From Catajapyx aquilonaris (Eukaryota): a DNA stretch of 47,424 bases. Position numbers and translations under genes: made by a program. The stretch's first letter is position 1; every line of letters starts with the position of its first letter. The notes beneath the pieces were generated by a model. That model saw only the letters and a program-made list of their open reading frames with translations, did no database searches and was not told the origin of the DNA. The stretch is taken from positions 1 through 47,424 of the forward strand of contig JYFJ02003009.1 of the NCBI GenBank assembly GCA_000934665.2, given 5' to 3'. This document shows positions 6,001 to 37,200 of this stretch, in pieces.

Positions 6001-8083
6001 TATATAAACACCACAGTGACATTCGGTATTTGTGCAGCAAATGAATTACAACTCTGGTATCTAGTATACGAGGGGGTATTAATCAAGTTGATCATTGTGG
6101 CCAGCAAGTGGGCCATTCGAATATATGGAGTGGGTGTAAAGTTAGTTTCAGCTGAAAGGTTTTAATGTCACGTTTTAATCGATGCTGTTCAGTTCCACAC
6201 CTGAGTCCCCCACATCAACTCATTATTTTTCAAACAAAAAAAGCAACCTCGTTCGCAACTTTATCATGGTCCAAATTCTCCTAAAAATCTTCAAACTCTT
6301 GCAGGCTGATGGCCTTCAAGATTCAGACGGAAAAAAAGACGTGTGGCCTTAATAATTGTGTCGAGGCGCAAACAACATTTTTTTTTCTCTCTGTCTCTCT
6401 TTTCCTTGCCTGGGGACCCTTCCTTCTCATTGTCAAAAGAAGAAAGAGTTCTCCAGGTCGGCATTTGTGCAACCTGAACTTGCAGAGGCAGATAATGAGG
6501 CACACTCTTAAGGTTTCATAACCGGGGTCGAGTTCCCTCATTAATATTTTTTGTTGCATCAAAATGTGCGAAAAAATATGTGTATGCACCGACTGTTTGA
6601 TCAGCTATAGATACAAGCTGTGTGCTGTAGTTCGCAAAAGCTATTTTGGCTTGAGGCAAACGGATTCCAATACCGTCCCGTTTCTCAAGACCGCGGTGAT
6701 TAATTTTGCACATAATACCGCCGCAAAGTCTAAATTCCGTTGGGATGAGGTTCGGAACAGGGGCTTTCCCTTTGAGGCAGCATCTTTGATACGGAACTGG
6801 ATCCGGTAGTCGCCGCACGTTTAGCGGATTTTCCACGACGATTAGAATCGTTGTCCTGAGGGGACTATAGTCGGCAACAGGTTTGTCCACACTCTATGTT
6901 GTTGTTGTTTCCAAAAGTATGTTGTGCTTGCAAATATTATGGCTCTTTAAAAAAAACACAATGAAACCAATATTATCGCGATGAAGGATGATTAAATTGG
7001 TTGTGCACCCTACTTGATAGCTGCGTAGTTGTCTTAATTAATTACGTTGTTGTCATTAATTCTGGCATGAGAGCCATAGAAAAATTGTTAAAAAACCGCT
7101 CTTGAGGGCTGTAAATGAGGCTAATTGCTCATACCACGTTTGCGTTGGTCAGGGCACGAGCTATAGTTTCAAACAATCCACAGCGTTTATTGCTCGTGGC
7201 AATCCCGCAAATTCCGCTAGATCCCATTCATTATTGTGAGTTTAAAATAATGCAAGTTCTCTCAGGGGTTACAGGTAACATGACAGCCGGTCATTGCTGG
7301 TAAACGGTAGAGGATTAAGAACATTAGGAAAGATTCGAAATTGTCTAGCCTGTACACTAATGAGGAGAAAATATCACAGACTTCTTTAGAAGGCAATTAC
7401 TCGTCTTTCTTTTTAAAAGGAAATCCTTCGAGAAATAAAGAAGTTTTTCCAAGCTGTCGTTTGCAGCCGGTAACTTTTTTCGCAAGGCACAAAGGGGAGT
7501 GCTTCTTGGCCTAATTTGCTAATGATTTATATAACCTTTAACTTTCTGCGCATGAAATATTGATTGAAGCGGAAAACTGTGTTTTAGTGAAAAAATTTTA
7601 AAGGGTACTGTATAGCCTCTTGGTATGGACAAAGTTCAGATTTCATGCCTGATTAGGCAGCAAAACATTACGCAATTAGCTATTCAGTAATATTCATTTT
7701 TCGCATAGTTGTTTTGAGAAGTGTTGGAAGATACGCAGGCAGTGTTACATTTAATGCTACTGATTGAATATACTCATTGAACTCATTATTATGCACGTTT
7801 ACATCTCCCTCAACTAATACTGATTCGATGATTGTAACGAGTTAATTAACATGCGCTTTGACATAATTGTCCATTCCTGTGTTATATTAATGACAAATCA
7901 ATGTTATGTGACATGCACAATGCATTTTGAGAACCGTGACATATTTCGACATTTGTCACCAGTAATCTGTCGCAATTGGCACATTCTTATAGGGCCGGAT
8001 TGTCCCAGGTCGTAAATATTACTATTGATGTATCAGACCCTTATTGGACCATAAGATGAAAAAGGGTCGTCGGACCTACTCAC

Positions 8084-11400: not shown

Positions 11401-11907
11401 ACTTGTGCTTTTTCTAGTTCCATCGTTTCTTTTTCTGGAACGCCTACGCCTGGGTGTATTCCCTGCGGGATATTCGTTGAGACACATTGGCCTTTACAGG
11501 CCTTAGGGAACCTTTGGTCCGTGGGCTTTGAAAAATGGGGTCAGTTGGTTGGTTCTGCACAAATACCAGGATTATTTTTTCATCGGGCAAACAGGGGTCA
11601 TGCTCATCCGTAATAATTAATCTTCTTCTTGTGGGTTGAGAAGTAAAAGTTTGGGAAGATAATAACTTTTATAAGGCAATGTCCTGAGAGACAACAAAAA
11701 GTTGCAGGTTAGGCCATAAACAAAAATGTTACATATAATCTTATCTCCATTGAACTTTTGAGATGGCAATGGCAGTGATATACTGCTTAGCTAATCGCTG
11801 AGTTTTTGCCATGTTTGCTAAATATTTTGCGCATTAATTTCTGATAACAACAAGCTTATCCATTTCGGATTTGGGGTCAATGTTGGCATCACTGACAATA
11901 TTGCTGT

Positions 11908-11937
11908 TGGCAACACTGCCAGTTCAAAGATGGCGGC
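11908..11937 (+). promoter_or_regulatory. Promoter-proximal motifs of GTDC1: YY1-type AAGATGGCGGC and TGGCAACACTG
   Basis: AAGATGGCGGC (11927-11937) matches the YY1/Pho consensus about 100 nt upstream of the ATG; TGGCAACACTG at 11908-11918. Confidence 0.5.
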
Positions 11938-12029
11938 GCCTGCTGTTTGCAAAGAGAGTTGAAATCTGGACCGTTTTGCTCAAGGTTTTGCTAATTTCTG
12001 CGTTAAAGCTGGCGAAATACGTGGCAGGC

Positions 12030-12143
12030 ATGGCCGGAAACGATGAAGTGCTCTTTCTGGAGCCGTTTTACGGAGGATCTCATAAGCAGCTGATCGACAC
12101 GCTCATGGAAGGTGTGTCATAATATGTGCGACATTGGTGGATC

Positions 12144-12203
<60 letters not shown>

Positions 12204-13464
12204 ACAGGAAGAGCTGATACATGTCTCCATACACTTCCCGCAACCAAGTGGCACTGGAGAGCCAGAACGAGTGCTTTGCACTTCGCACAGACAGTCCCAA
12301 AGGTGCATAAGTTCAGGTGATGTAATTATTAAATTCTTACTTTACACTCCCAACTAATACAAAGTGTAAGTCATACGAAAAAGGCTATTGTGCTGAAGGA
12401 AATCATTGCAATGCTTATCTTTTTGCAGGGTTTTATTTGCAAGTTCTGTGCTGAATTTGTCGGAACTGATGTCTCTGAGGCCAGACTTGGCTGCCTTGCA
12501 CAAAGTGGTGTACTTTCATGAGAATCAACTTGTGTACCCAGTAAGGAAGCATCAAGAGAGGGATTTTCAGTATGGCTATAATCAGATCTTAACCTGGTAG
12601 GTATAACTCACAAAATTGTCAGTATATTGTTATTGGTGAAGTAAATGCATCTTGCGTGAGAGAGCTATCCTTCAAACAAAATCAGGCATTATTGCGGCTT
12701 TCTGTAACTTGTATTTGTTTTAACATGCAAGTGAAAACCTCTTGATTGGTATCAGTCTTGTTGCAGACAAGGTAGTGTTCAACTCCCACTACAACATGGA
12801 ATCATTTCTTGGCTCCATTTCAACGTTCTTCAAACTACAGCCCGACCACAGGCCTAAAGGCTTGGAAGAACAGATTCGGCCAAAGTGCAGCGTCTTGTAC
12901 TTTCCACTACAATTTCCACCTTGCATCAATCGTGTTGCAACAGACAAGCCACTGCACATAGTGTGGCCTCATCGATGGGAACATGACAAGGATCCAGACA
13001 CTTTCTTTTCAGTCCTGGACACCCTGACTCAGTATGGCCTTGACTTTCGCGTCTCCATCTTGGGCCAAAGTTACAACTGCATGCCGGAAGTGTTTGAGAG
13101 TGCACGCAATAACCTTGGTCATAAGTTAGTACATTTTGGTCACCTCCCATGTCGAGAGGATTATTACACAGCGTTGCGAGATGCAGATGTGGTTGTGTCG
13201 ACTGCCATACACGAGTTCTATGGAGTAGCTATGATAGAAGCATCTTATTGTGGTTGTTATCCTTTGTGTCCGAATCGACTTGCATATCCTGAAATATTCC
13301 CACCAGAGTGCCTGTATAATACGACAGCTCAGCTTGTTAAATCATTAGCCTCATTCTGCAAGAAGCCATACTTGGCTCATCATAAATGGAATAAACTTGG
13401 ACTTGAATTTGAAAAGTACAGTTGGGACTCGCTTAAGAGCAGTTACAATGCACTTCTGAAATAA
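12030..13464 (+). CDS. GTDC1: Glycosyltransferase-like domain-containing protein 1 (tRNA-queuosine mannosyltransferase, QTMAN/GTDC1); 4 exons, about 355 aa
   Basis: Exons 12030-12111, 12208-12316, 12429-12596 and 12756-13464 join in frame through GT-AG introns (1068 nt). Motifs [62 protein letters not shown] and PNRLAYPEI are characteristic of GTDC1. Confidence 0.93.
12145..12201. repeat. (ATT)19 microsatellite in GTDC1 intron 1
   Basis: Perfect ATT run directly before the ACACAG acceptor. Confidence 0.97.
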
Positions 13465-14911: not shown

Positions 14912-15436
14912 TAAGCCCAACTGAAACAGAAAGTCGGTTCCAAAACTAGCACATATTTTATTTACTTTCTTCGACCTTCCAACCAGTACATGGCTATTCA
15001 CATCTACACAACACACCTACTCGTGACATCCACTACCTCGAGGCCTTCTCTTGATATGTCTCGTTATGTTTCCAGTGATGATATGTATCAGTTGGACAGT
15101 GTTACCAGGACAAAAAAAAGGAAACTCAAAAATGTTTGTGAAGTGATGTCTTCTCAAGAACTACAGAAACACTTTTATTCCAGACAAGGTGCGGACGACA
15201 CAAAAGTACACAATGACACATAAGGTGTGTGTTTGTGTGTAAAACCTTAACCGAATGAAACGGAAAAGAACAAGTAGGGACGTCGCGCAACAGTATAAAA
15301 TAGGAAATTAAATTAAGAAGGTTTATAAAATCACAATAAAAGTGTCCCCACAATGAAATGAAATGCAGTAAAATGTACAGAAGTAGACCAACCACCTTCC
15401 TATTTAGCTTAGAGAATGTCTCTTTTGTTGATGTTT

Positions 15437-18400
15437 TTAATTGTACTGCTCTGGCATCACGTATGAGATGTCGTCCCATGGATGACGATACAGCCCTTGC
15501 TTCAGGCGCCTCTGGTCCAAGTAATGGCCTGAAAGCAAAGGAAGGTTTAGACACACTTCACTCTCCAGCCATTGCATTAGAAACTCACCAATGAATCCTA
15601 TGCTGCGTCCAAGCACAAACAGGCCGTTGATGGTCCCGACCTCAATGTACTCTTGCGCCTCCTCAAAGGTGAAGCAGCCACTGTTGCGCAGCAAATCTAC
15701 GAAGGACACCGCTATCACTCCGTCCACATTGAGGATGAGGTTAGGCTTCTTGGAAGTGGTGATCTTCTCAACCTCCAAGGCATAGTCAAGGAGGGGAGTG
15801 GATGGGAAGTTCTCCTTCACATATTCCTTTATGATCTTCACCCGCATGTCAGGGTTGTTGATCTGCAATAGACAAGGAGTATATGAGACGTGAAGGCCAA
15901 CATGTTAAGTGCAATGTTGTGTACGTTACACTGTACAGCAAGCTGGATACTGCTCAATATTCAGTGACAGAAAGTTACGCAGTTAGTTATGAATGAGTCG
16001 AATACTAACCGACTTGACTCTGTGTCCGACACCCATGATGAGTTGCCCCTTCTTGCGCATTGAATTCACAAATTCCATGGGGATGAGCCCGCTGTCGTAT
16101 GCCTCACTGAATTGCCTTGCAGCTCCATCGAGTGCCCCGCCAAACCTGTCGCCAATGGTCAGCAAGCCAGACACCAGAGACGAAACAAGATCTTTCCCAG
16201 CACGTGCACATACAATGGTGTTGTGAGCTCCAGATACAGCTGGTCCATGATCTGCAGTTACCATCAAGCACATCTCAAAGAAGTTGCATGCATAGAAAGG
16301 TAGTCGCCGTTGGAACCATAATAGAGAGATGACTCCTCCAAGGCCCATGTTTTGCTTGAGGACATCACTGATTGGCATCCCAGCATACAGCAGCTCCTGC
16401 CCTCGCTCGTCACATATGGATGTCATGAAGGAGGCTGGTTTGCGGATGAGGCCCAGCTCTCGTGCCCAGCTAAAGTCCATGGGCACTGTCGGAGGGGGAA
16501 CTTCCGGCTGGGGAACAATGACCTCGGCCTTAACCAGCTGGTCATACACCCGACGAATCATTTCTCCAAGCTCATCAAAATTGGGTGGGACATATGCTCC
16601 AGCCTCTGCCAGAGCCTTGTTCTTGGCTGTGGCCGTCTCCCGGTCAGAATTGGCACAGGCACCAGCATGGCCAAACTGGACCTCTGCCGTGAACATGCCT
16701 GCACAAGTGCCAATGCACCATGCAACAAGAGGCTTGGTAATGCGGCCACTCTTGATAGCTTCACACACTTCATACTCCTCCACACCACCAACTTCGCCCA
16801 GGAGAACTATCATGTGGATCTGCAATTTTAAAAATCCAAAAGTTATGGACAAAATGCACCACAAAATTCTCTTTCCATAACTGACAATTATTTGTTAACG
16901 ACTAGTGAACATTTATAGCAAAATCGTATCTGGCTAATTTAGAAGCTTTTGCTACATACCTCTGGATCAGCCTGGTAGCGCAAGATGTGGTCCATGAAGG
17001 TGGTCCCTGGATAGCGATCTCCACCAATAGCAACACCTTCATAAACACCATTGGATGCCTTAGATATGACGTTGTTGAGCTCATTGGACATCCCTCCGGA
17101 GCGGCTGACATAAGCCACACTCCCTGGACGGTACAGCTTGGAGTGCAGGATGTTGTCCATCATCCCTCCGGTGTTGCCAATCTTGAAACAGCCTGGCTTA
17201 ATGCCTCCAACAGTGGCTGGCCCAATGATGCTGACTCCCTTGGCATGAGCCTCCTTGTTCAGCTTACGGGTCATGTTTTCTGGGATACCTTCAGCAATGA
17301 TAGCTATTGTGCGGATTTGTGGGTGTTGCATGGTTTCCATGGCTGACTCATAGGCAGATCGCAAGGAGGCAAAGTTAACAAGGACATCTGCATCTGGGTG
17401 CTTTTTGTATGCATCTGCCATGTTCTTGTACACAGGGATGAGGATCTCCTTATGCCCCCAGTAGAACTTCTGCTTGTGGTCACCAGTGAAAGGGTAGACC
17501 ATAGCTGCCACAGAAGGTTCCTCCCGACGGCATACAAAGTCAAAGTCAAGCATTCCTTGCACAGCTCGGGTCTGCATGCCCCAGATCACTGCCTTGGTCT
17601 TCTTGGTGAAGGGCACGCGAATGGAATCACCTCCATCAAAAGCTGGTGGAGATGAGGAGGAAGGTGGAGGAGAGGCTGCTCCCTCAGGCTTGCTAGTCTT
17701 GCGAGATGGCACGGGACTCTCCTGTGAATAAGGTTCAGATGTTTGATCAGATTTCCAGATGTTCCCACTCTTATAATTAGTACCTCTCATATTAAATAGT
17801 TTTTCAATACATTTGTAGCACCTCTATTGGCACTATAATAGGATAAACTGTCAATCTGTTTAGGTTTATTATCCATGTGAAAATTATTGAAAGACCTCTA
17901 TCAGTTTAGATAGCTTCTACGTACCGACTTGTTCTGCCCTCCAGGAAGAAGGAAATTGGCAGTAGAAAACTCAGCAGTGGGCTCCTGCGGGATGGGACGC
18001 TTCCCCAATGCCATCCCAACAATGGCTGTCATGTGAGTCTCAGGCCCAAACACAAAAAGTGGGATCCCCAGACTCTTGGCCACGTCCCTCATGACCCTCA
18101 ACCCCTCCTGGTAGTTGGGACCGGCCCTGCGTGCAAATATGGAGATCTTGTGCTCCACCAGCAACGGCTGGAACTCTTGCAGGGCTGTTACTATCCCCTT
18201 GAAAGTGGAAGCCACATTTGTGAAGTTGGCTATTCCGCCACCAATGATGAGAACTTTCCCTCTGGGATGCTTCTGCTTCGTCATCAGCTGCAGGATGGTC
18301 TTTGCGTACTCATAAGTTTGCTGCTCTGATGGAGCTCCAGAGTATTCTCCATAGTTGGCCAGCTCAGATGCACCTCCTAACTCGCAGATGGTGTCACTGT

Positions 18401-21400
18401 AGATGACCGATGCACCTCCACCAGCCACCATGGTCCAGATTCGTCCAGTGGGGTTCAGTAAGGTTAACTGTAGCAACAGAATGCATAAATTTAAAAAACG
18501 TAAACAAAGGATGTGTACATGTAAATTATAATTTAAGTAATTCATTTGATTGAAGAGCACATCTAATGTTAAGCCAAACTTCAATAAATGATATGGCAGT
18601 CTCGAACATGAACAATGCAATATTGTACAATATTAATCACAATTCAGACAGTCATTAATTAGTGAAGGAAATCAATAACATCCACTCCAATGCTAAAAAT
18701 ACGAATGCGGTTTTTGCTATGGCCCACATTTCCCCTGCCAAGTGAATGCAGTTAAAATAATTTTTCTGCTTCCTTCGCTCCATGTTTTGTGTGCTCCGAC
18801 TAGCGAGTTACGTGCAAGGCCTAATTGCGGCATCCCAAGATCCACCTTATCTGTACATCTTCCTGACAGTGAATGCAGTCCTGCATAATCATTAGACTGA
18901 TTTATTTCATTTCATTGGAAATATGCTTTGAGTATCTGTCATACCAAAGAGACGTAAGAGACGTAACCGAAATTAAACTTATTACGAGATGATGTAACAA
19001 AAAGCAGCACATCAAGAATATTTCGTAAGATCTAGCTTGAAATTTTTTGCCTGCCACGAGAAGGTCTCAATTATTCTTGCTTAGATAATGCTTATCACAA
19101 CCATCACACACTTGAGCATCTCTAACCACTAAAAATAGGATATGTGCTAAAAATACATGACTGTTAGATAACTTGATGACGGAGGCCATGAATAACTCTG
19201 AGGTACAATTATTTCTTCTGCATTATTGTGGTAGGCACGAGAGCAGAAAAAAACGTATGATTCACTTCACTGTTTTCCAGGGGTAAATCACGCGTCAAGT
19301 CCGACCAAGTCCAGGCCCAAGTCCGTTGTACGCTCAACTGCCGAGTGATTTACCCCTTGAATGTCTTGGAGTATGACAATAACGTAACAATTTTTTTAAT
19401 CTGACTACAATTAACTCACACATTGGCTAGAATTTACATTTTTCTTGTTGTTATTATTATTAGTATTATTATCAGAATTCTTTGTTAATCTAATAAAATT
19501 CGCCCTCTTGTCAGATTAACAATGAATTATAAATCCAACATACCTTGAGGGAAGCCCCACTCTTGGCATCCAAATCCGCAATGTAAGCTTCCTCTGGGTA
19601 GGCATCTCGTCCGAATGGAGGTGGATACTCCACCTCCCCCCATTTGGCGCGGCACACAAAGTCAGCTGTGGCATCAAGCTTAGCTGCCAGATCCAGGATG
19701 TACACCGACCCCTTTGTGACCACCAGGGGATTGATCTCCAGGTAGGTGAAGCAGAGGTCCACATAGTTCTTGTACAGGGCATGGATGAACTTGGCCACCA
19801 GAGCCTGCTTGTCCTTAGCCACATTCTTCAGGAGCTTCGACTGTATAGTGGACTCGGAGATCTCCTGGTCAACGGGAACCTCTAGACGTAGAGCCTTGGC
19901 ATCCACGTCACCAATGTCCACTCCACCTTCGTGGTGGAAAAGGATGGTATCGCCATCACGATGTGAGTAGATGCACACGTACGCCTCTTCTTCCTGCAAA
20001 CAGTGGTTAGTGTAAGCCACAAGGTCAAGTTTGATTTGCCGTTAATTCTCTTCCAGCTTCGTTTACAATGCAATTCCAGCATATTAGCACGGCCATTTCT
20101 ATCACCATTTGAGAAATTCAAGCAACTGTTGTGTAATATGTATATTTCAAATTACCATCACCCCACTCAAATAACTACCATCGCAAAGTACCAAATTGGT
20201 ATCATAAAGTATAAGTGCTGCATGAAAATAGTTAAATTCCACGGCAGGGATATTAAATGATTCTGCAAGTTGTAATCAAGCAAGCAATAACATTTTTTTG
20301 TAATACGCCTTGCCAAATTACAAGAGTTACTTCCACATCACACAAAAAATTCTGTTCAATGACAAGAAGCTATAAATTGGCTGTATCTTCTGGTGTTTGG
20401 ACTTGAACAGGCAAACAGTCAAGAGATAAACCAGACCTACTAATTTCTCACATAAGTTGGTAAATATTTTGATTGCATGTTTACTCTAATTTCTGAGGCA
20501 ACAAAAGAATTACAGTGATCCTTTCAAGCTGTTCAGATTAACACACATTTCCACATTATTACACAGCAATCATGACTCTTGCAACAAATGTCAGCCTCCA
20601 CATAAATTACATCTGAGTGTCCTTTAATCATGATGCACATAATACTTACTTGAGTGTGAGCAACAAACGGTTCGATGATGAAGTTGCGCAGTTTTCCAGA
20701 AGCTCTCCCCACCTGTAATGGAACAAAAGGCTGCTGATTACTCCTGAACTATTATTGAAGGCCATTTATTCCCACACTATTGACACTCCTCTTACATGCG
20801 ACCCATGTGTGCTTGCACACTCAGGCCAGAAAGCATGTCACCAAGTCGTGACTCACTTCATGACCCTCCACGTGCAATTACCGCAATAATCAGTGATCGA
20901 TAAAAATATTGTGTCACTGATATTGCTCAATACTCTCAACCCAGGAAACTGAAGAGGTCATCATTCATTGATAATAAAACCCATAAAATATGAGGACATT
21001 TTATTGCCCTTTCCAGTCACTGCAATGAAATCTGGAGTTTGGTTACGCCTCTAGGGTACGACCTTGGCAAGGTTTCCCAGCCCAGCAGATCAATAGAGAG
21101 ACACATCATCTGATCCACACTCTTCGGGAGCCAAATTATTCTCCACCCACGCTTTTCTTCCCCGCAAAATAAATTCGCAAAAAAAAAAAAAATCGGGACG
21201 TCAGTACCTTGGAAAAACAACACGTAAGATTAAGCCTTGAAAAAAAAAATTTTTTTGCCCGAATTTTTCTCTGTCAACGCGCGGAAAAAATTTGCGTGCG
21301 AAATTTTCGCAGCCATTGCGTTATGATCCTTGACGTAAGTGATGAACAGGTTCCTTTCTGGCGATAACGGGACCATGAACGGATTCTGGCCTCATCCACT

Positions 21401-22946
21401 GGGCACCAGGGAAAAGGTCAATTTTTTTTTATTTTTTAAAAAATCTCCCATTGCATTTGCAAGAACTGGGTGGGAAAAAAATGTTATTACAAATGAAAAC
21501 TCATTGTTCGCTTCAGGGTACACCGTGCAATTGTTGATTTGCACATTTCCTATCATGCAAATTCATTTTCCCACAAAATTGCAATCTGCTTCCCAAAAAC
21601 TAATAATTTCTTGCACCCAAATTGCAGGTATGATCCAAGGCCGGTGGTCAGACTCAAAATGTTACATCACGTTAGAAGTGAGGCATAAAAAAGGGAAGTA
21701 TTAGTATGCGGTAGCAGCACTTAGGTAATAATCCAGAGGATTTTATCTCCCAACAAGTGACGTCTGGTAATATCTAGGGGTGACTACCGGGGTTAAAAAG
21801 TCGAGATGTATTTCCACTTGTATCTATACCCCTTGTTTTTTTTACAGGCGTGTGCGACGCCCTGTTGGGATGGGATGGCATTTTGAATGGTTTTTTGATG
21901 CAATCGGTTAGCGTTTTGCAACCAGGGAAGGTTTCCCTACATTCAAGGTCGACCCTGGGGTCTCAGTAGATTTCTTAATAGGGATGGTTAAAAAAAAGTT
22001 GTTGCCTTCCAGCATTCAAGACAGCCAACTAGTCATTCGTGATAATAAAGCAAACTGAGTAAAACAAAACAAAAAAAAACATGTGGTTCAAGGATGGGGG
22101 GGATTCCCGAATGACCGGCATTGAAGTTATGCAGCATCCAGGTGCAAATCTCATGGGCATGAGTCCAATTAGGATTTACATCGCTGGTAACAAGAGTGAG
22201 AAAATTGAGTCGCACGGACCTTGTCATTATCTCCAAGGTGATATTAAAAACATGCAATCAGACAGCTATCTCCGTCATCTTAGGAAGTAATTTTAGCTGA
22301 ACTACACATGTGCCTATGAAATGTACGGTGGGAAGAATTTTCTCATTTCGCAACATCTAACGTAACACTAGTGATAAATTTAGCATCACGCTCGTATACA
22401 ATTCTGACTAAAATGCCGTATGACGAAACTACCTTCCCCATGATCTGTCTTAATTGTTTGCAGCGGTACCATCTTCATTTTCGCAGGACTTGAAAATATT
22501 GAGCTTTCGGTTGTTCAGTATTGCCCGACTACAAATTTATATTTTTGCCAACTACATGCAGATGTTCACCTACCTGAGTATCTTTGTTCATACGATCGCT
22601 GATCCACGCCTTGACTTCCTCTGCCTTAGCGTTCACTTTGATCAGTCCCAATTTACCTCTGCGCTTGATCAACTGATCCGGCTTCACCACAAGGGCCTGG
22701 AAAATGTATGAAACACAGTATAATCGAATGTGAACAAGACGAATGCAACGAACGGTACGAATGCTTTAAAAATGCGGGTGCAGTACAAACCTCTGAGAGA
22801 ATCCATGGGTTCTTCTGCACCAGGTCGTGCCACTTGCTGTCCTCAGTGACTGTCGCAAACCTACATGCCGCTGCGCCGCAACCGCTGGGCAAGTTGCGGT
22901 TCAGTATGTCCTTCCCGGTGGCCTCTCTGATTGCTTTGGCTGACAT
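15437..22946 (-). CDS. ACLY: ATP-citrate lyase; 9 coding exons, about 1090 aa
   Basis: Exons 22946-22791, 22696-22574, 20712-20650, 19993-19544, 18467-17925, 17721-16960, 16819-16010, 15862-15589 and 15528-15437 sum to 3273 nt in frame. Motifs [57 protein letters not shown] (phospho-His), [12 protein letters not shown] and C-terminal [11 protein letters not shown] 5' UTR intron probably spans 22982-23150. Confidence 0.97.
19279..19357. mobile_element. Short inverted-repeat element (putative MITE) in ACLY intron 4
   Basis: 13-bp perfect IR AGGGGTAAATCAC ... GTGATTTACCCCT enclosing three CAAGTCC repeats; no clear TSD. Confidence 0.55.
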
Positions 22947-23059
22947 TGTCGCTGGACTTTAAACTGGTCAAAAAAATATCCTGCAAAACCGAAACAATCA
23001 AAATGAGTACCGTACCAATTTGACAAGACCCCCCGTTGGCACCCCTGTCAGGTCACATG

Positions 23060-23665: not shown

Positions 23666-25808
23666 ATGGAGGTTTTTCAAGAAGGAGTTTTGGACTACTT
23701 GAAGGCTACGTACTGCGATGATGTACGCTGAGTGATCAATGGGTCAATGTCTGGGGTTGTCCATACTCATATACAAGGAAAAATGGGCAGAAAAATGTTA
23801 TGTCACCATCATGTTTATTAGGATAAATTTATTGTACAATTTATTAACACTTTGCTAGTGATGCAGGAGCGTTGTGCTGCTACAGAAACACTTTCAAAAA
23901 AAATTTGTTGCATTTTTCTTTCTCTAATAACGCCTTTAATTGATGGTTCATTCAAATTAGGGCATGTACATGAGACTTATAGTTCATTTCACTTAGATCA
24001 TAGAACATTCATAGCTTACACATGTAATTTTAAAGATACCGGTACACTAGAACTTGTTCTTTTTAGGAAACCACATCAAAAGTGCTGGAGTGGCTGAGGA
24101 CACCTCCGTGCAAGAGTTACCTGCGACTGAATACACTTGAAGATGTGTCGCACATTGAAGATGAACTTAGAGATGTGCTTCTCCAAATGTATGAGGAGAA
24201 GAAGGCACCAGTTCCACACGTAACGAAGGTTGCTGGAATTCCAGATGCTTTGGAGTTACGTTCGGTGGGTCTTAGAGATGGGGTGGTGCCAGTAGAAACT
24301 GAGGTCATGGTTGACGTCAGGTGCGGTGCCGCTGTCATGCGAGGTGCGTATGTGTACGCACCAGGAGTGCTGTCGCTTCCACCTCTTTCAATGCCAGGAG
24401 AGACAGTGTCAGTATATTGCGACCTGGCTGGCCAGTGTTTGCGTGGATCCAAGGCTTTTGATGGATCAAAGCAGTTTTTAGGTAATGGCATTCTGCTGCA
24501 GCCACGGAAGGACATATTTGGCAGTGATACCATTCCAAGCGGAGTTGCGGTTAAAATGGTTGATCCGTTATGGGATTGTCCTAGTCTGGGAGACTGCTTC
24601 CAGGACAAGGTTATGCTTCAAAATTTACCTTCCATTGTGTGTGGGCACGTGTTAGATCCGCAGCCAGGAGAAACAGTGCTGGACATGTGTGCTGCACCAG
24701 GTGGGAAAACCGGACATCTAGCTTCACTGATGCAAAATAAAGGGATACTGGTTGCATTAGATCGCTCCAAGTCTAAGATTGAGACCATGAAGGGACTTTT
24801 GAACATGCAGTGTGTCTCAGTACATCAGTTTGACTCAACGAAGGCAGTGGACCTTGAGGCTAGGGAACTGAAGGACACACGGCCACCTTTTCCACCAGAA
24901 AGTTTTGATCGTGTTCTGCTCGATGCACCTTGCAGTGCACTGGGACAGAGACCACAAATTTGCAACCGAATGAGCTTGAAGGAAGTGGCTTCATACCCTG
25001 CCTTGCAGAAAAGGTTATTCAAAGCAGTGAGTACCAGTTTTTGTAATCTCCTTTGTTAAAAATCAGTAGCATTTGTATGGAATTGCCCTGCAACAAGGAC
25101 ATGCCAATATTATATTCATTGTTGAAGGGTGATATTGCAATAATGATAAGACAATAACCACATAATGACGGTATAAAATAACAATGCTGTCATGCCTAAT
25201 GTAATAATTCATTTGAGAAGATCCCAATAGGTGACAGCCAATCTAGTCAATGATCAATGTTCAAGCATCAGCCCATCATCCTTTTGGGGCCAATGTCCAC
25301 TTATAATCCATTGATCTATCAGTGGTCTGACTTATTATGAGGTGCACTTCACAATACAAATTATTATTTAATCTCTTTACCTGCTAGCCAAAACATAGCC
25401 TATGCTAGATTATATATCATCAGCATGTGAATAACACAAAACCACGAAAATTTGACTTAGATTTGACTTTAATGCCCATGATATGACGTATGAATCCAGT
25501 GCACTGGAGGAAATTAATTTTTCACTTTCTTTCAGGCTGTGAATTTGGTGAAATTGGGCGGTGTCTTGGTGTACAGCACTTGCAGCATTGCTGTTCAAGA
25601 GAATGAGGATATGGTTCAGTGGGCCCTATGGACTTTTCCAGCAGTTCTGACTTTGGAGGAATCTAAACCACGATTTGGTGGAGTAGGACTCGGAGAATGG
25701 TCTGGAGCGGAATTGGTGCAGAGGTTTGACTGTATGCAGAGTCCACATCTTGATACTATTGGATTTTTTATTGCCAGATTTAGAAAAGTAGGCAGGTACG
25801 TTAAATAA
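23666..25808 (+). CDS. NSUN6: tRNA (cytosine-72-C5)-methyltransferase NSUN6; 3 coding exons, about 429 aa
   Basis: Exons 23666-23722, 24067-25026 and 25536-25808 (1290 nt). PUA-like segment AVMRGAYVYAPGV, LQNLPSIVCGHVLDPQPGETVLDMCAAPGGKT (SAM motif I), DAPCSALGQRP (motif IV Cys), YSTCS (motif VI Cys) and DTIGFFIARF. Confidence 0.93.
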
Positions 25809-27328: not shown

Positions 27329-27644
27329 AAAATCAGCTTACGCCTTTGTCACCTGTTAATTAGTGTTATCTGAAAAAAAAAAGAAGTACACAGCAAATTA
27401 TTATTGCATAACACCATTTACTCTTGATAACACAAAATAATGCAAATAATGGCTCACTTGCAACAAAGATGATGTTGCAAAAGGTGATAAATTTGCCTAT
27501 GTGACAAGATGTCGGTTTTCCAGTGATTCTTAACTGGAAGTGGTAATCAAGATTATCTCACAAATAGATAAAAACTATCAGACAAATTGTCGTTAAACAA
27601 TATTTGGCAGTACCTTTCACCTTTGAAAGAAATTATTGGTCTTC

Positions 27645-27855
27645 TCATCAGATGGCGCCACGAATTGGGATGTCTCTGCCATCTGCAGTGAATTTACGGA
27701 AGGCATCATAACTTGTTAAAATACATGCCAATTACAATTTAATTATAATTATTAATAGAAATAAGCCTGTTCGAAGATGTGTCCGAATTAACTTTTTAAA
27801 TGCCCCTCCTCCCCCCCCCTCCTCTCCCCCACTTCCGGTTCCAAACAAGATGGCG
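27645..27855. promoter_or_regulatory. Divergent promoter between the CBR1-like and THAP genes: inverted CAGATGGC pair, ETS and YY1-like sites
   Basis: CAGATGGCGCC at 27649-27659 and inverted CTGCCATCTG at 27676-27685; ACTTCCGG at 27831; AAGATGGCG at 27847-27855, about 90 nt before the THAP ATG. Confidence 0.55.
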
Positions 27856-27941
27856 CAGAGTCGTTGGCTGTGATCTGTTCTGTTCCATATTTTTTTGCGA
27901 TCCTGATTTCGTCCTTGGTTCCCCCGGGGGCAGAGAAGACA

Positions 27942-30771
27942 ATGCCGTGCTGCAGCTTCGTGTACTGCTCCAACCGGAGCGATAGGAACGTCACCACCCG
28001 GAGGCTCTTCCGATTCCCCAGGTGCCCCAGACGACTGCAGCAGTGGGTCATGCTCTGCAGGAGAGACCAGTACTGGACGCCCACAGTCAACTCCAGGCTT
28101 TGCGAGGTATTCACATGCCCATATGCACACCCATATTGTGATGACACTGGGGGTGTTTCAATATTGCAGTTCCACTTTGATGAGTCGCAGTTTGAGGCCA
28201 ACCGCCAGGACGGACGGCGCCTGCTTCGTCCTGATGCCATCCCGACTATATTCCAAGCGGGGCCGTCCGTGGAAGCGCACTTCAGCAGGAAGAGGGTGCG
28301 GGAGACTGAGACTTACTTTACCGACCACAGCTACACCGCAAAGAGGCTGCTCATTCGCACCAACGACCATTGCTACACCAACAAGAGGCAGCAGTGCAGC
28401 AGTAATGAACATTGCTACAATTCGACCATGCCCTTGCCGCTCATGGTTGTAAGTACATGCTGTGTTTGCAAGTAGAGTCATGTTCACGAGTTCAGTCAAG
28501 TAATAAAACACACAATTTCAGGAACTTCGAGTGGAAGACTCGGGAGAAGTAATCTGCAAATATTTTGACAATGACAGTATGTATACATTCTAATATTAAT
28601 ATACAGTAAATGAAGGGTAAAGGCCATTTCACAAAAAAAATGTCGCGCGGCAAACGGCGCGACTTGCGGCAAATTTTTTATTTATATTTATTGTTGCCAA
28701 TTGTTGGCAACAATAAATATAAATAAAAATTTGCCGCAAGCCGCGCGACATTTTTTTGTGAAATGGCCTTTAATCACTCAATAGTTGACTTGCAAAGAGT
28801 CAGACTCAGTATTTACCATTCAACGGATTTACCCCTCAATAGTAAACTTATCCTTTGAAAGCCAATTGTAAACCGTATGTTTCTTGTATTTTAGGTCCGC
28901 AGAATATGGTGATAACTCCTGAGCTGCCACCTCCAGAAGTGCTAGACTTAGACGCAGAGGATGACATCAGCCCGCCATCCCCGATATGCCAGCTAGATAT
29001 GCCTCCCAGCCCCAACACTGCCGTCATGGTGGATCCGCCTGCCAACACCGGGGGTGAGTTTGAGTCCCAGCTGTTGTCTCACTTACACCAGATGGAACGA
29101 GAGAACAAAGCGCTGCAGACGGAGAACCAGAAACTGAAGGACAAAGTGCAAGAGGAGCTGGATCGCAATGCAACGCTGGAGGAGGAAAAGCGCAGTCTCC
29201 GTCGGCGTCTGTACCTTCTGGAGAGGCAGGTCACGCAGTTTAATCGTTTGCGCAAGCGGTTGCATTTCCTGAATCCAGACCAAGTGAACATGCTGTGTGG
29301 TCGGAAGCAGGTGTCGCACTGGAGCGAGGCCAGCATCAGGCATGCACTGCAGATCAAGTATGCCTGTGGGAAGAAGGGTTACGAGTTCCTCAGGAAGATG
29401 AAGTACCCTCTGCCTAGCTACAGTACCTTAGCTGGACGCACCAACCAAGTCAGCTTTGTTCCAGGCATCATTCAAAGTACACTCGAGGTGAATATTCTGT
29501 TTGTTACTCGTAATGTACTCTAAGTCACGTTGCAATTGATGTTCTGCAATGTATGCTAGAGTATTCGAAGTAATTTCATTAACAACGATGGCTGCATTTT
29601 CAACATGAATATTTTTGTCCAGCCACTTTCCTCTCTTTTGAAATGTGTGAAAATGCATTGTTGTTAGTAACTTACGTACTTTGTGTTGCAGATTATGAAA
29701 TTGAAGGCAAGCTCTATGAGTGATCAGGACAAGCAGTGCTGCATCCTGGTGGATGAGATGCAGTTGACAGAAGGACTCTCATATGACCTGGGAATGAAGA
29801 GGATGATGGGCTTTGTAACTCTCGGTAGCAACGCCAGTGGAGAATCTAATCCTGCCTCGCACCTCTTAGCAGTCTGCCTCCGAGGGCTGGGGCCTGGCAA
29901 GTGGCGTCGGATTATTGGGTGGCACCTGACTGATGTCTCTTCGTCAGGTGCTGATACCTGGGTGTTCGTGCGGGAGGTGATACAGAGCTACGAGGCTGCT
30001 GGGTTTAGGGTCCATGCTGTTACAGTGGGACTGACCAAAAAGTGCCGTTCAGTGTGGACTGCTGCTGGGATTCCACCCAATGTGATGAGCACTGAGTCGA
30101 GTGTAATCCATCCATGTGACATGGCACGGCAGTTATACTTCATGGCTGATCCGCTCTGTGTGTTAAAATCCCTCCGAGTTGCACTCCTGAAGGACGGTGC
30201 CGTAATTCCAGGAAGTGTCGCACATGCTGAGGGCCTGCCAACAGTTGAGGTGTGTCCTAAGTACATCATGCAAGTCACCAGCAAAGACACAGACAGTGAC
30301 CTGCTTAAGAGTATGAAGTCTGTCAGTGCCAGTACCATGTTCTCCTCAAGGACTGCAAACGCCATTCGCTCAGCCGTGAACTCAGGGACTCTCGAACCCG
30401 ACGCACTTGCTACGGCTTATTTCGTAGGTTTGGTTGCGCGTTGGTACTCCACTCTTAATGGCAAGGGCCGGAAGGAGTTTCTGACAGTTAACAACATTGT
30501 GGAAAAGGAGACTTTTCTGGCCAGATTTGTCGAGTTGGTCAGAGATTGCCGAATAGGGTCCAGTGATTGGCTACCTTGCCAGACTGGATTTACAGTCAGC
30601 ACATTCAGCTCTGTGTTGTTAGCGAAGCAGCTTCTGAGGGAGGGTGGGCTACAGCGAGTTCTGACCTCTCGCTTAGGGCAGGATGCTGTTAGGAGCATGT
30701 TCAGCAGTATCAGGGCCAAGGCAGGGGACAGGCCAAACGCACTTCAAGTGTGGGCTGCCCTTAAAGTGTGA
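27942..30771 (+). CDS. THAP-domain, P-element-transposase-derived protein (THAP9-like fold, probably catalytically inactive); 5 exons, about 723 aa
   Basis: Exons 27942-28106, 28170-28448, 28522-28576, 28895-29487 and 29692-30771 (2172 nt in frame; exon 3 is the least certain). THAP C2CH finger (MPCCSFVYCSN...FRFP...W...RLCEFHF...DAIPTIF), coiled coil, P-transposase motifs W...ALQIKYACGKKGYEFLR..YPLPSYSTL, CILVDEM, W..IIGW, YFMADP..LKSLR and RLGQD...FSSIR. Confidence 0.85.
28618..28772. mobile_element. Foldback MITE (near-perfect 155-bp palindrome) in intron 3 of the THAP gene
   Basis: TAAAGGCCATTTCACAAAAAAAATGTCGCGCGGC... mirrored by ...GCCGCGCGACATTTTTTTGTGAAATGGCCTTTA; about 70-bp arms, 3-nt loop, one 12-nt bulge; TA (or TAA) flanks. 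Confidence 0.85.
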
Positions 30772-31054
30772 TGTGTAATACATGAAAGGTGGTCTTGGCA
30801 TGATTAGAGGTGTGCAGTTTTTGGTGGGGAAGTTACTCGCATGAAAAGAGGGACTGCTGAATCACAGTGATATTCATACCCAGTTGTACAGTATGTGGTT
30901 TGGCCTTGTGTAGAGAACAGGATGGATCAACTGCACTGATGTTTTGGTTTACTTGATGTTGCAAAGATAGGCAATAGAAACATACCACTGGTATTGCACT
31001 GCGGATGGATTCATGAACAGGCGTAAACAGGTGGCACAAACCAGCGTAACTCTC

Positions 31055-31199
31055 TGAGGGATTAGTCACTTATGAAGTCCTTCATACACCAAGACTGAAG
31101 TCCGGACGAAGTTTGTAAAGTACGACTGAAATGGACTGCAGTCCGGTCAAAGTCTGTGAAGTCCATCGTAAGCTATAGTATCAAGTGACTAACCCCTCA
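31055..31199. mobile_element. Inverted-repeat element (putative MITE) with internal AAGTCC-like repeats
   Basis: TGAGGGATTAGTCACTT ... AAGTGACTAACCCCTCA (17 bp, 1 mismatch); interior contains repeated GAAGTCC/AAGTCT/CAGTCC units. Confidence 0.65.
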
Positions 31200-31706
31200 T
31201 AACTTTCACAACCTGTTCAAAAGTCTGCAACCCAAGGTATACCCAAGAGTCGACACAAGTGTTATTAGCGTCTCTTACAGCAGCTAATCATCACCGTTAA
31301 AGATTGAGGCTTATATCGTAACTAGTATCAACATCCATTGTAAATATTTGACAGTGTGGCCCTGCCGACCCGTATGGGAATGTTTGATGGCCTGTATTGA
31401 CAAGGTTTGTCTAGGGGGGCCTATTTTTACAGACCCTGCATGAGTATTTGCAATATTGTAATATATTTGCCTGGTTATTGTGTGCATCAGTCCACAGGAT
31501 GTACCATGAGTAAAATGTGGTTGAACATGCCCAGCTGTCGTTTTATATTCTTTCTTGTCAGTCTTTGGGAAGAAGCAAGCAGTTTTATGGTACCACTGCA
31601 CTCCTATGGTTTCCCTGGTGAAAATTCCTAGGTGATGCAAAAATCAGAACACAATGATTGATTTTGGTTTGAAAGAAATATTGTTGGTGTGGATTCGGCC
31701 ATAAAA

Positions 31707-33836: not shown

Positions 33837-34205
33837 GAGGAGAAATATGGAAAAAAAAACTAATTTTCGGCATGTTAAACATGTAAATTGTTTCAAACAG
33901 TGTAGGCCGTTGCTTAAATTTTATATTGGTAAATTGAATCTGAAAAAATTAAAATAACCTGGATGGAAGCTTGTTTGTGAACTTCTGTTAGACTTCTGTG
34001 TCATACAGTATTCATTTTTGTGACCAGTGGTGAATGACGTGTGTTAATTTGCTTATAAGATAATCTGCATTGAATGCTGCAACCTGGCCAGTGCACTTGT
34101 GGCATTGCCGCTGGAGCAGATGCCATGAAGTAACATCTGGTCAAAACATTTATTATTCCAAACCACTTCTTTAAAAAAACAAAACTAATCTTCATCCTCT
34201 GCCAA

Positions 34206-37200
34206 TCAGTCATTTTCGTCATCGTCTGCTGCATTGTCCTCTGACTCCTCTGCAGGTTCTGCCTCCTCGCTGCCTTTGTATGACGCTTCTTCTGAAGGTG
34301 TCATACCTTCCTCACTGCCCTTCTTGCTACGATCTGATTCACCTTGCTTATCCTCGTCATCCTCATCCTGCGCAGCCAGCTCAGCTGCCATGTCCACTGA
34401 GTCCACGCTCTCAGCATCCTCCTCATCCTCCGCCTGCTCTTTGCGCCTCTCTTTAAGGTAGAACCTAGCGTCTTCCGTTTCCTCGCCAGTGACCATTTCC
34501 TTGTCAATCCGTCTCACGGTTGATATGTTACTTATCAGCTCCATTCTGTAAGATGCCGACCCATGGCAGTAGAGATTTTTTTGAATTGAAAAATGTGACA
34601 TTACCTGTAATTTTCATCCTCACTGATCGGATTACCATCAAATAGGACTGTGGCGAGACTGACCAACGGCGGAATCTTTCGGGTTAATTTGATTTTGTCA
34701 ATCTTGTTGTTCCTGAAGAAGGACTGGCTTTAGTACACGACATTTGACTTACAGCGAGAGACCATACCTTGCATTGATGTACGTCAGTCTCACCAAGTCC
34801 TCATTCAGCCCTTTCAGGTTCACCAGGAAGTTGTCTCGAATGTGCAGGATTTCCAGGTTGACCATCCCCTCTAGCCCCACGATCTTCTTGATCCTATTCT
34901 GCGCCTGTTGAGGAAATGTCACCGTTCAATGTGTCTGTTGTAAAGTGTACCAAAACAACAATTGTTGGTAAAGTTTGCAACAATTGCGTACCAGGAACAG
35001 CCTCACAATGCTGGGAAGCCCCATGCCATGGGTCGTCTCCAACATGTTCTTGCGCAGCTCCAACTGCACCAGGCTAGGCAACGCACCCGGAAGCAACAGC
35101 ACAGTTTCGATCCTGTTATCTGTAAACATTTACGAGACATTCAGTGCCATACAAGTCTTAATTTCAATATATTGAAGTTTGAACTCCCGCGTTTTCAGAG
35201 GACTAGTTCAATTTCAAGCCAACAGATGGCAGCGGTTGCGTCACCGAGCCGTCGCTACATCTGGCGGCCAATTCGGACACCACATGAAACCGCGGTGGGA
35301 AATTCGAAAATGTCATTAACACCAATCGTGAAATATTGACGAAGCAATTAATTAGACGCCATTATCCACCATTTCCGCTCTTATTTTCCGAGCCATTCCG
35401 CGCAGGAAGCTCGTGGCAGGAAACGGGTGAAATCATGCATCTATAGAGTGAGTGTGTAAAAAAAAAAAGGTCAGAAGGTGAGATGGGTGGAAAATAAAAG
35501 GAGGCGGTCGAAAATTCTCCCGTCACTCTTGGGCGCCACAACGATTACCCTTGGAAGACGCCCGATTGCGAGCAAGTACCATAAACTAAAGGGGGAAGAA
35601 GAAGTGTTTGGAGGAGGCCAGCGGCCGTTTCGTTCTGCACCAGGTCTCTTCTTGGGAACATCTGTGTCGGGGAGTAGTCTCCGCCCATCCGGTCCCACCC
35701 CGACCCCCATCTCCACTTCCCACATCATTTTCTATTCACAGTCTCGAAGCAGTGTAATTGAAGGCGTAATTTACAAAGCGGCAGGGAAAACCCAACTATA
35801 CTCCCCATCCGAGAGAGAGAGAAAAAAAAGAAAGAAAATGTAGCGAAATTATCGAATTACCTCATGAATATGCAAAAATACCCCGTTGCATTTTCGGTGC
35901 CATGTTTAGCTGCAATAATTTCCCCTCTTCCCAACCAGCAAACAACTGATTTTCCACCTCCCCTTCCAATGTTTGTCTTGTGGCACCAGTTGTCGCTCCA
36001 TATGTAAGCCCCCCCGTCAGCCGCCACCAGCACCGTGTGTGCCTTCACTTTTTTTTATTTTTGTTTTTTAAAAGGAAGAGGACAGGAAATCCTTGACAAG
36101 CACCAAATTATGTGGGAGTGGCACTACGACCCATATGCATTTTTAGGAGGATGCAACACCTGACGAAATGATGCATACACCTCCGAGGCGTGGTTTCGAA
36201 GTTTCTTCGGGGCGGTGGTAGAGACCCTCGAAAAGAACAGAGCATAGACACTCCGGAGGAAACAACCTCATTCCCCATTGTGTCCTCATCCATAAGCAGG
36301 TGCTATAAACATTAGGAGTGTCTTTTTGGGATGATGGTGGTGGTTGATGAGAGGGGGGGGGGGGAGTAATCATATTCTCATTGTTTCCAGTGTGTACTGT
36401 TAACTGGGTGCGTGTAGGCTGCTCTAATGATGCCATGCTCTGTGATTATGGGCCGGGTTTGCTTTGGAATTGAAACGAAAGATGTGTCAAATAAGTAGGG
36501 TCTTTGACTTTAAGGGGATGTTGGGTGCGCCGTACCTTTGCTAAGCGTGTACCCAAGACGTGTAACTGGCACCGACTCCCTCAGAAAAAGATTCATGTCT
36601 GCGACACGTGATGACTTACAACCGTCATATTACTTGGGAAGTAGAAGCTCCGTTCATTATTTTTAAAGCCGCGTTCTGCTGCCAAGTGGGAAAGGCCAGT
36701 GGGCATTAATGTGTCGTTACCTCACTTCTTTCGCAAAGAGGAAACGTGGTTACTTTCCAACTTTTACCGCCTGCTTAGTGGCGTCTTTGTCAGCACTCAA
36801 ATTGGTGGGGGCCATCTTCCTCCCCCCAAAAAACAAAAAAAAACTTGTAAACTGAAAAAAAAATTAGGTGAATATTATTTATCTGCGACTCGTCAACTTT
36901 AATGCAATATTTGATGTTACCTGTCGGGTTCGTGAATTTTTAAGGACGGTCAAAAAATGTGTGCCGGTGGGGATTAATTTTGGACTTTTAGGAGTAATAA
37001 CAATATATTATTCATGCAGATCTCCTGGCAGCAGTTTTTAGCCGGCTTGAAAAATAGAACGAGTCTATTTGGAAGCGTAATGACCGTCATAAAAGACGGT
37101 TTAAATGCCGCCATTATTATCGTGTTATGCAGTAAGGTCCTAGAGTGAAACCTTGTGCACATCTACTAAATCTCTCGGAGAGGAGATTCTATTTTTGAAG

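Follow-up and report, generated by a model that had tools for sequence, protein, structure and literature searches.

Does a spliced, transposase-like gene standing among housekeeping genes belong to an element that can still move, to the remains of one, or to the host? The question is raised by a five-exon gene at positions 27942-30771 of a 47,424-nucleotide (nt) stretch of Catajapyx aquilonaris DNA (contig JYFJ02003009.1 of assembly GCA_000934665.2; hereafter the window), which lies between a TCAIM-like gene and a short-chain dehydrogenase gene that we take to be CBR1-like, after the name given to it in an earlier, sequence-only reading of the locus. That reading had proposed a domesticated P-element transposase with a dead catalytic centre. 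We find that the frame is intact and precisely spliced, that from the THAP finger through the RNase H-like fold its product is collinear with P transposase, that two of the three catalytic residues have been replaced and the C-terminal domain is absent, and that no transposon ends flank the gene (coordinates in Table 1). On balance we consider it probable that this is an immobile host gene derived from a P-superfamily transposon and now regulating transcription or chromatin and docking HCF-type co-regulators, a judgement that takes in the premise of domestication itself.

The gene model is backed by transcript-like contigs from X5, a public run of the same organism whose sample and study differ from those of the DNA runs X1 and X3, and which we treat as RNA because its contigs are spliced. 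A single 2112-nt X5 contig joins all five exons at GT..AG boundaries and covers the listed coding pieces without gaps, while the exon joints of the gene are seen in neither X1 nor X3. The uninterrupted five-exon open reading frame claimed for the locus is thereby borne out: all 723 codons are open, and each of the four introns (63, 73, 318 and 204 nt, all GT..AG) is supported by this contig, so that a spliced transcript contig with an intact frame is present in an independent sample. The length of the contig places the inferred 5' end of the transcript at about 27846. Neither AATAAA nor ATTAAA was found between the stop codon and 31900, and the 3' end is not defined by such a signal. An alternative placement of the mini-exon at 28522-28549 was rejected for its non-GT donor, the X5 joints giving 28522-28576. 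As a separate observation, intron 1 (28107-28169) splits the THAP finger and is both in frame and free of stops; were it retained, 21 extra residues would separate the third Cys of the zinc site from its His.

What does the gene encode? Its THAP finger (Pfam: PF05485) scores 43.5 bits over profile positions 1-87 when exons 1 and 2 are read through, and the zinc ligands C4, C9, C54 and H57 as well as the AIPTIF motif are present in the translation. The proline-rich linker and the coiled coil that had been noted from the letters are both present in exon 4; Pfam matches to the coiled coil are weak, phmmer aligns the exon with residues 103-204 of the Drosophila P transposase structure 6p5a, which comprise the zipper and the helix-turn-helix (HTH) (E 0.004), and the blastp relatives align from about residue 245-310 onward, taking in exon 4. 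Exon 5 corresponds to the P-transposase RNase H N-terminal domain (Pfam: PF21787, 64.6 bits), its residues 7-352 aligning on residues 216-551 of the 6p5a chain (HMMER against the PDB, E 6.9e-15), in agreement with the P-type RNase H-like core proposed before. An AlphaFold2 model of this exon, built from 66 relatives, reaches a predicted local distance difference test score (pLDDT) of 93.8 and a predicted template modelling score (pTM) of 0.91, and its top PDB match in Foldseek is 6p5a_A (E 5.8e-20, template modelling score 0.79, 22% identity), with Hermes, Transib and RAG1 ranking far below. Because the THAP, exon-4 and exon-5 alignments follow one another in this order, the product is collinear with P transposase, whose RNase H and C-terminal domains are reported to span residues 200-566 and 566-751 (PMC10824691), starting with the THAP finger and running through RNase H, and the alignments support descent from a P-type transposase. 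One detail of the sequence-only reading has to be withdrawn: the GTP-binding insertion is not shortened, as the second catalytic Asp and the Glu are 221 residues apart in the gene as against 228 in Drosophila P transposase and the predicted fold superposes on 6p5a. A Pfam scan returned no separate insertion-domain family at E<=0.1.

At the catalytic centre the gene departs from its family. The triad of P transposase is reported to be D230, D303 and E531 (PMC7776569), and HMMER pairs these residues with Asp385, Gly477 and Arg698 of the product, at exactly the coordinates that had been named for them (29752, 30028 and 30691). The same assignment follows from a multiple alignment (MAFFT) of the gene and the 150 best relatives, out of 1303 that a search of 1.84 billion representative sequences returned, for which column counts are given in Table 1 over the relatives that have a residue at the respective column. 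The surrounding motifs have changed as well: the SDMGxxN motif reads TVGLTKKC, the residue after Arg698 is Ser where the family has Asn, and DPLCVLKSLRV, already singled out as the altered DxxHxxKxxRN motif, pairs in HMMER with DTPHLIKLVRN of the Drosophila transposase. Kept are Glu386 beside Asp385, Asp695 (the D528 equivalent), and the QD of the Glu motif. Among the 80 relatives with >=85% coverage, 70 have an intact DDE triad and 10 miss one position each; the loss of two is found in none of them and is particular to this gene. At family columns conserved at >=80%, the gene keeps 35 of 50 residues, whereas the median among 96 relatives, three of which score lower, is 92%. Among the 15 lost residues are all of SDMGxxN, both His and Asn in DxxHxxKN, both Glu and Asn in QDxxEN, K and Q in the WKQ motif, V401 (to S) and F443 (to Y). 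Two of these are among the residues reported to contact GTP in P transposase (D528, K385, K400, V401, S409, F443, D444 and N447; PMC7776569), which in the gene read, by pairwise alignment, D, K, K, S, S, Y, S and N; V is found in 133 of 145 relatives at the V401 column and F in 125 of 143 at the F443 column, the other contact columns being variable or uncertainly aligned. With five of the eight identical, GTP binding by the product is uncertain.

Pairwise alignment, multiple alignment and structure model alike support a dead catalytic centre. Could the protein nevertheless be a nuclease or transposase with a non-canonical acidic set, for instance Asp385/Glu386 together with Asp695? These three residues and the fold are indeed kept, in human THAP9, which is active, a structure superposition reportedly puts a Lys where the first Asp would be (PMC10824691), and alignment-based triad calls have been questioned before in the P/THAP9 family. 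We nonetheless regard residual enzyme activity as very improbable, since three independent alignments concur on Gly and Arg at D303 and E531 with no acidic residue adjoining either; moreover, SDMGxxN, the motif His and the Asn after the Glu are replaced too, S, Y and S stand at the GTP-contact positions V401, F443 and D444, the protein lacks the C-terminal domain, and there are no transposon ends for an enzyme to act on. With two of the three metal-binding carboxylates and neighbouring motif residues replaced and the acidic C-terminal domain gone, the product would be unable to cut or join DNA.

The missing C-terminal domain, likewise claimed before, is clear from the relatives. The frame ends 18 residues past the conserved Arg of the Glu helix, at about residue 558 of the Drosophila protein and thus at the boundary between RNase H and the C-terminal domain, while 89 relatives run on for at least 120 residues beyond this point and the family domain measures about 185-220 residues. 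A profile of this tail matches 107 of the 150 relatives and nothing in any frame of the window; its best match there (E 0.04) falls in an exon of the ATP-citrate lyase (ACLY) gene, on the opposite strand, and was not taken as a remnant. Nor did tblastn with the 150 relatives against the window find anything downstream of the gene. The gene ends in AAA GTG TGA, which resembles a splice donor (AAA/GTGTGA) read through to a stop. In Drosophila, the junction of the third intron (IVS3) lies at about codon 561-576. Because the end of the gene looks like a retained donor, one may speculate that the truncation arose as it does in the repressor made by IVS3 retention.

That repressor, a 66-kDa protein of Drosophila, is described as lacking the C-terminal third of the transposase while keeping the THAP domain and repressing transposition (PMC7776569). 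Is the gene a host-fixed repressor of transposons, equivalent to the Drosophila 66-kDa, or type I, P repressor? Such a protein would bind the ends of related active P-like elements through its THAP finger and HTH and might also, by co-oligomerising with their transposase via coiled coil and RNase H scaffold, poison it and keep the elements in check, and it would differ from the regulator that we favour in its target only. The stop at residue 558 or so, next to the reported domain limit at 566, is a truncation of the same kind as that of the 66-kDa protein (PMC7776569), the DNA-binding and dimerisation modules are all kept, and P-like transposases with an intact DDE triad, the potential targets, are common in arthropods. 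Set against this, the window holds no related P-like element, the nearest known transposase, with an identity of only about 32-34%, is distant for common ends or mixed oligomers, and the triple HCF-type motif and housekeeping-style bidirectional promoter described below suit a general regulator better. A dedicated repressor therefore seems to us rather unlikely. We hold as a tentative possibility the broader idea that the gene represents an independent, non-drosophilid version of the 66-kDa solution, frozen at the boundary between RNase H and the C-terminal domain, with its active site erased and its HCF-1 motif triplicated, that may still police P-like elements.

The flanks of the gene lack the ends of a P element, as the sequence-only reading had it. 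No inverted repeat brackets the gene other than one chance-level 17-nt pair (82%; 27690/31984), which at one end lies inside a TCAIM-like exon and is without a target duplication, and no 8-bp target-site duplication was found in the flanking sequence. All 241 high-scoring segment pairs obtained by tblastn with the 150 relatives fall inside the gene, so that there is no other P-like segment in the 47-kb window. As to the proposed count of genomic copies, the mean word depth of the DNA contig over exons 4-5 is 21 in X1 (flanks 20.6 and 22.6) and 33.5 in X3 (flanks 32.6 and 32.9), matching the single-copy flanks in both runs. By this indirect guide, the gene is present without near-identical extra copies.

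Two features that had not been recognised before suggest what the retained parts might do. The first is a set of three [DE]HxY motifs within 33 residues of the linker behind the THAP finger. This is the HCF-1-binding-motif consensus, which is reported in most human THAP proteins, THAP9 among them (PMC10824691), and which occurs singly in 3 of the 7 relatives that bear a THAP domain. A 42-nt in-frame tandem duplication (28332-28393, 75% DNA identity) made the second unit, and a third, more diverged one follows. The second is the coiled coil (29053-29295), for which a parallel homodimer in register is predicted with a score of 0.49 as against 0.00 for the best control, a mark reached by 21 of the 30 proteins that were solved as pairs and by none of the 23 solved as single chains; three runs concur in at least 93% of the contacts, and the partner pLDDT is at least 81. 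Since coiled coils resemble many solved dimers, this pass may come from the model's memory, and we take dimerisation as supported by the prediction.

From these elements, the following course of events may be drawn. A P-superfamily DNA transposon of the P element/THAP9 type would have given rise to an immobile arthropod host gene, whose 723-residue product carries, from N- to C-terminus, the THAP finger, the linker with its triple HCF-1-binding-type motif, a stretch rich in Pro and acidic residues, the coiled coil, the HTH and the RNase H fold with its insertion. Deprived of catalysis, the remainder would be a dimeric scaffold that binds DNA sequence-specifically, with the THAP finger and HTH contacting its sites and the [DE]HxY motifs bringing in HCF-type co-regulators, and it would be expressed from a bidirectional promoter in common with the CBR1-like gene. 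Dimerisation, HCF recruitment and the regulatory role would all follow from domain content and prediction.

Is the frame under constraint, or has it merely not been hit yet? An old, immobilised insertion without host function, transcribed through the adjoining bidirectional promoter, could look much the same: catalytic residues and C-terminal domain are lost as they are in dead copies, 10 of the 80 well-covered relatives carry single triad substitutions and broken copies are common in the family, transcription beside an active promoter can be incidental, and no orthologue that would speak directly for conservation was found in the libraries searched. Against this speaks the state of the frame itself, as the assembly and an independent transcript contig, from which four introns have been precisely removed, both show 2172 nt in five exons intact. 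When the coding sequence was mutated neutrally, with insertions and deletions left uncounted, the frame stayed open in 1 of 2000 simulations at 0.10 substitutions per site and in none of 2000 at 0.15, the range of divergence implied by the loss of 15 of 50 conserved residues. The terminal branch of the gene is long, measuring 0.94 substitutions per site in an 81-tip tree with a median of 0.62 (75 of the 80 other terminal branches are shorter). Differences among the three runs are about ten-fold fewer in coding than in adjacent non-coding sequence of the same locus (1 in 2172 nt against 9 in 1723 nt, miniature inverted-repeat transposable elements (MITEs) omitted; Fisher p = 0.007); the sole coding difference is an A>G change at 30280 (Ser>Gly), and three of the others fall in intron 1. 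The zinc ligands of the THAP finger, the HTH and the core of the fold, for which the model is very confident, are kept, and triplication of the 14-residue motif unit preserved the frame. These observations point, indirectly, to purifying selection, and we find a decaying relic improbable. As for the earlier proposal that the frame was kept while transposition was lost, P-type descent, a dead centre, absent ends, flank-like depth and splicing all agree with it, and a 2.2-kb frame that is open in spite of 15 replaced conserved residues, as against 0-1 of 2000 neutral outcomes, agrees with its first part; the step from there to a domesticated host gene is supported only indirectly.

Several points weigh against a domesticated regulator. 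No orthologue or close paralogue was found, the best match among the 1.84 billion representatives being 34% identical. The members of the best cluster are no closer (31.7% identity), a word-based search of longer proteins returned no orthologue either, and in the tree the nearest relatives are unnamed or beetle sequences, with weak support for any sister (0.55). The protein libraries evidently do not hold this species, since the gene's own product did not turn up among the matches. A metagenome match was discarded as a chance match of 15 residues. Furthermore, contig word depth guides the copy number only indirectly and is blind to diverged copies, and X5 carries no RNA label and counts as RNA by its spliced contigs alone. 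The open-frame argument presumes that the conserved residues drifted away after the gene had become immobile, and the contrast in polymorphism amounts to 10 differences from at most two samples, in contigs that drop rare variants. Conserved residues have been lost somewhat more often in the catalytic motifs (8 of 17) than elsewhere (7 of 33), which at p = 0.10 is a trend only. Finally, the [DE]HxY motif is short, and its presence is reported to be no guarantee of HCF-1 binding (PMC10824691).

How does the gene compare with known systems? With Drosophila P transposase (87 kDa, 6p5a) it shares the order of THAP finger, coiled coil, HTH and RNase H fold with GTP-binding insertion, as well as the Asp that comes first in the triad and the QD within the Glu motif; it differs in having about 22% identity over the catalytic region, Gly and Arg in place of D303 and E531, three [DE]HxY motifs, and, judged by contig depth in the last case, neither terminal inverted repeats (TIRs) nor an 8-bp target-site duplication nor near-identical extra copies. 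Like the 66-kDa repressor, the product ends before the C-terminal domain and keeps its DNA-binding N-terminus; unlike it, the truncation is fixed and not a result of alternative splicing. Comparable, too, are the Drosophila P-neogenes. A 1997 paper by Nouaud and Anxolabehere is said, to go by its title, to describe stationary truncated P copies that code for a 66-kDa-like product in the montium subgroup of Drosophila, and one of 2005 by Quesneville and colleagues, cited in PMC8700633, reportedly, again by its title, bears on the P-neogenes of Drosophila. In the montium and obscura groups, they are described as immobile, TIR-less, P-derived genes with a product of repressor length (PMC8434751). 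The gene resembles them in being immobile, P-derived, without TIRs and without the last part of the transposase. In contrast, its tree neighbours, in a tree that does not include the Drosophila neogenes, are the unnamed and beetle sequences at about 32-34% identity, and the ACLY exon of its host is 85-88% identical to those of many insects, crustaceans and chelicerates in the library, with none closer.

THAP9 of vertebrates is reported to be a single-copy, P-derived host gene that lacks TIRs and is active (PMC7776569), and the human protein to keep a long C-terminal region (PMC7776569, PMC10824691). The gene shares with it, as far as these sources describe it, the THAP finger, an HCF-1-binding motif, a leucine zipper and the RNase H fold with its insertion domain, but it lacks two triad residues and the whole C-terminal domain and has three [DE]HxY motifs instead of one. 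The N-terminal half is laid out like that of THAP regulators such as THAP1 and THAP11, as they have been described: a THAP finger, [DE]HxY and a dimerising coiled coil. These regulators have no transposase core, whereas the gene adds an inactive module of HTH, RNase H and insertion as well as the triplication of the motif.

Domesticated P transposases are thus already known, as THAP9 and as P-neogenes, and the gene is comparable to both. In a literature search of partial coverage, we found no such gene described outside Drosophila and chordates, nor a catalytically inactive, domesticated P-derived gene of an arthropod, which is weak evidence of novelty. The domestication of transposases is a recurring route to DNA-binding regulators, to which the P superfamily has contributed THAP9 and the Drosophila P-neogenes, and the gene leaves this general principle unchanged. 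If our reading is right, it would add an arthropod case in which the DNA-binding and oligomerising scaffold was kept, catalysis and the C-terminal domain were discarded, and a co-regulator docking motif was amplified. As a natural separation-of-function variant, it could reveal what an inactive RNase H and GTP-binding core adds to DNA binding and oligomerisation, and it bears on whether such genes start out as repressors of transposons before they turn into regulators of the host.

Table 1. Features of the transposase-derived gene and its immediate surroundings (window positions; nt, nucleotides; UTR, untranslated region; MSA, multiple sequence alignment of 150 relatives)
Feature	Position	Strand	Basis
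Shared intergenic and promoter region of the CBR1-like and the transposase-derived gene	27338..27941		Motif scan; includes inferred 5' UTR from ~27846
Five-exon P-type transposase-derived gene	27942..30771	+	723 codons + TGA = 2172 nt; internal stops: 0
Exon 1: start codon and first part of THAP zinc finger (C-x4-C ... C)	27942..28106	+	Pfam THAP profile 1-55, 33 bits; X5 joint 28106/28170
Exon 2: end of THAP finger (xH, AIPTIF) to ~28253, then linker	28170..28448	+	Pfam THAP profile 57-87; X5 joint 28448/28522
Three tandem [DE]HxY motifs	28323..28418	+	Regular-expression scan; DHSY, DHCY, EHCY at residues 107, 121, 135; 14-residue spacing
Exon 3: 55-nt mini-exon	28522..28576	+	X5 joints 28448/28522 and 28576/28895, both GT..AG
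Palindromic MITE in intron 3, non-coding	28618..28772		Inverted repeats; DNA word depth
Exon 4: Pro/Asp-rich linker, coiled coil (~29053-29250), HTH (~29251-29487)	28895..29487	+	Pfam, phmmer, blastp, dimer prediction
Exon 5: RNase H-like fold and GTP-binding-type insertion (~30148-30684); TGA at 30769-30771	29692..30771	+	Pfam, HMMER, AlphaFold2, Foldseek
Asp385, equivalent of catalytic D230, kept	29752..29754	+	HMMER; MSA column D in 114/117 relatives
Gly477 at position of catalytic D303, lost	30028..30030	+	HMMER; MSA column D in 137/140 relatives
Cys520 at near-invariant His of DxxHxxK(N)	30157..30159	+	HMMER; MSA column H in 145/148 relatives
Arg698 at position of catalytic E531, lost	30691..30693	+	HMMER; MSA column E in 123/128 relatives
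3' UTR, at least to limit of RNA contig	30772..31532	+	Unspliced X5 contig 30714-31532 crosses stop codon
Second small TIR element, in 3' UTR	31055..31199		17-nt terminal inverted repeats, 94% complementary

The gene itself harbours two small non-coding elements. The palindromic MITE in intron 3 is a near-perfect palindrome of 155 nt, which has perfect outer arms of 22 nt and seems to be flanked by TA. Its summed DNA word depth is about 4,500-7,800, whereas the flanks stand at 21-33, and contigs break off by the dozen at its ends; given a depth in the thousands and these breaks, it belongs to a family of very high copy number. Intron 3 is correctly spliced despite it. Around the element in the 3' UTR, the respective bin shows an increase in DNA depth of about five-fold, and DNA and RNA contigs contain several alternative joints, which suggest multiple diverged copies or internal deletions.

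The surroundings of the gene are those anticipated by the sequence-only reading. Upstream, the head-to-head neighbour on the minus strand is a short-chain dehydrogenase gene, which is spliced and has adh_short matches in three exons; its orientation follows from CT..AC joints in X5 and from open reading frames, and its ATG, near 27324, is about 620 nt from that of the transposase-derived gene. Of the ETS- and YY1-like motifs said to lie in between, there is one of each: an ETS-type ACTTCCGG at 27831, recorded as CCGGAAGT on the reverse strand, and a YY1/Pho-type AAGATGGCG at 27847, both at the inferred 5' end of the transcript. The downstream neighbour is a DUF4460/DUF4461 gene, whose best named relative is a 'T-cell activation inhibitor, mitochondrial-like' protein of brine shrimp (29% identity), and the placement between a CBR1-like and a TCAIM-like gene is thus as described. 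Further upstream, an RsmB/F (NSUN-type) RNA methyltransferase, ACLY and a QTMAN/GTDC1-type glycosyltransferase complete a compact housekeeping neighbourhood (15400-23000 on the minus strand, 24067-25808 and 11838-13464 on the plus strand). In the remainder of the window, beyond about 35 kb, long frames are few, and single N's stand at 37860 and 40364. Downstream of the TCAIM-like gene, at 34189-34613, two frames overlap, a serine-rich one on the plus strand and, on the minus strand, one that is strongly acidic and rich in Asp and Glu.

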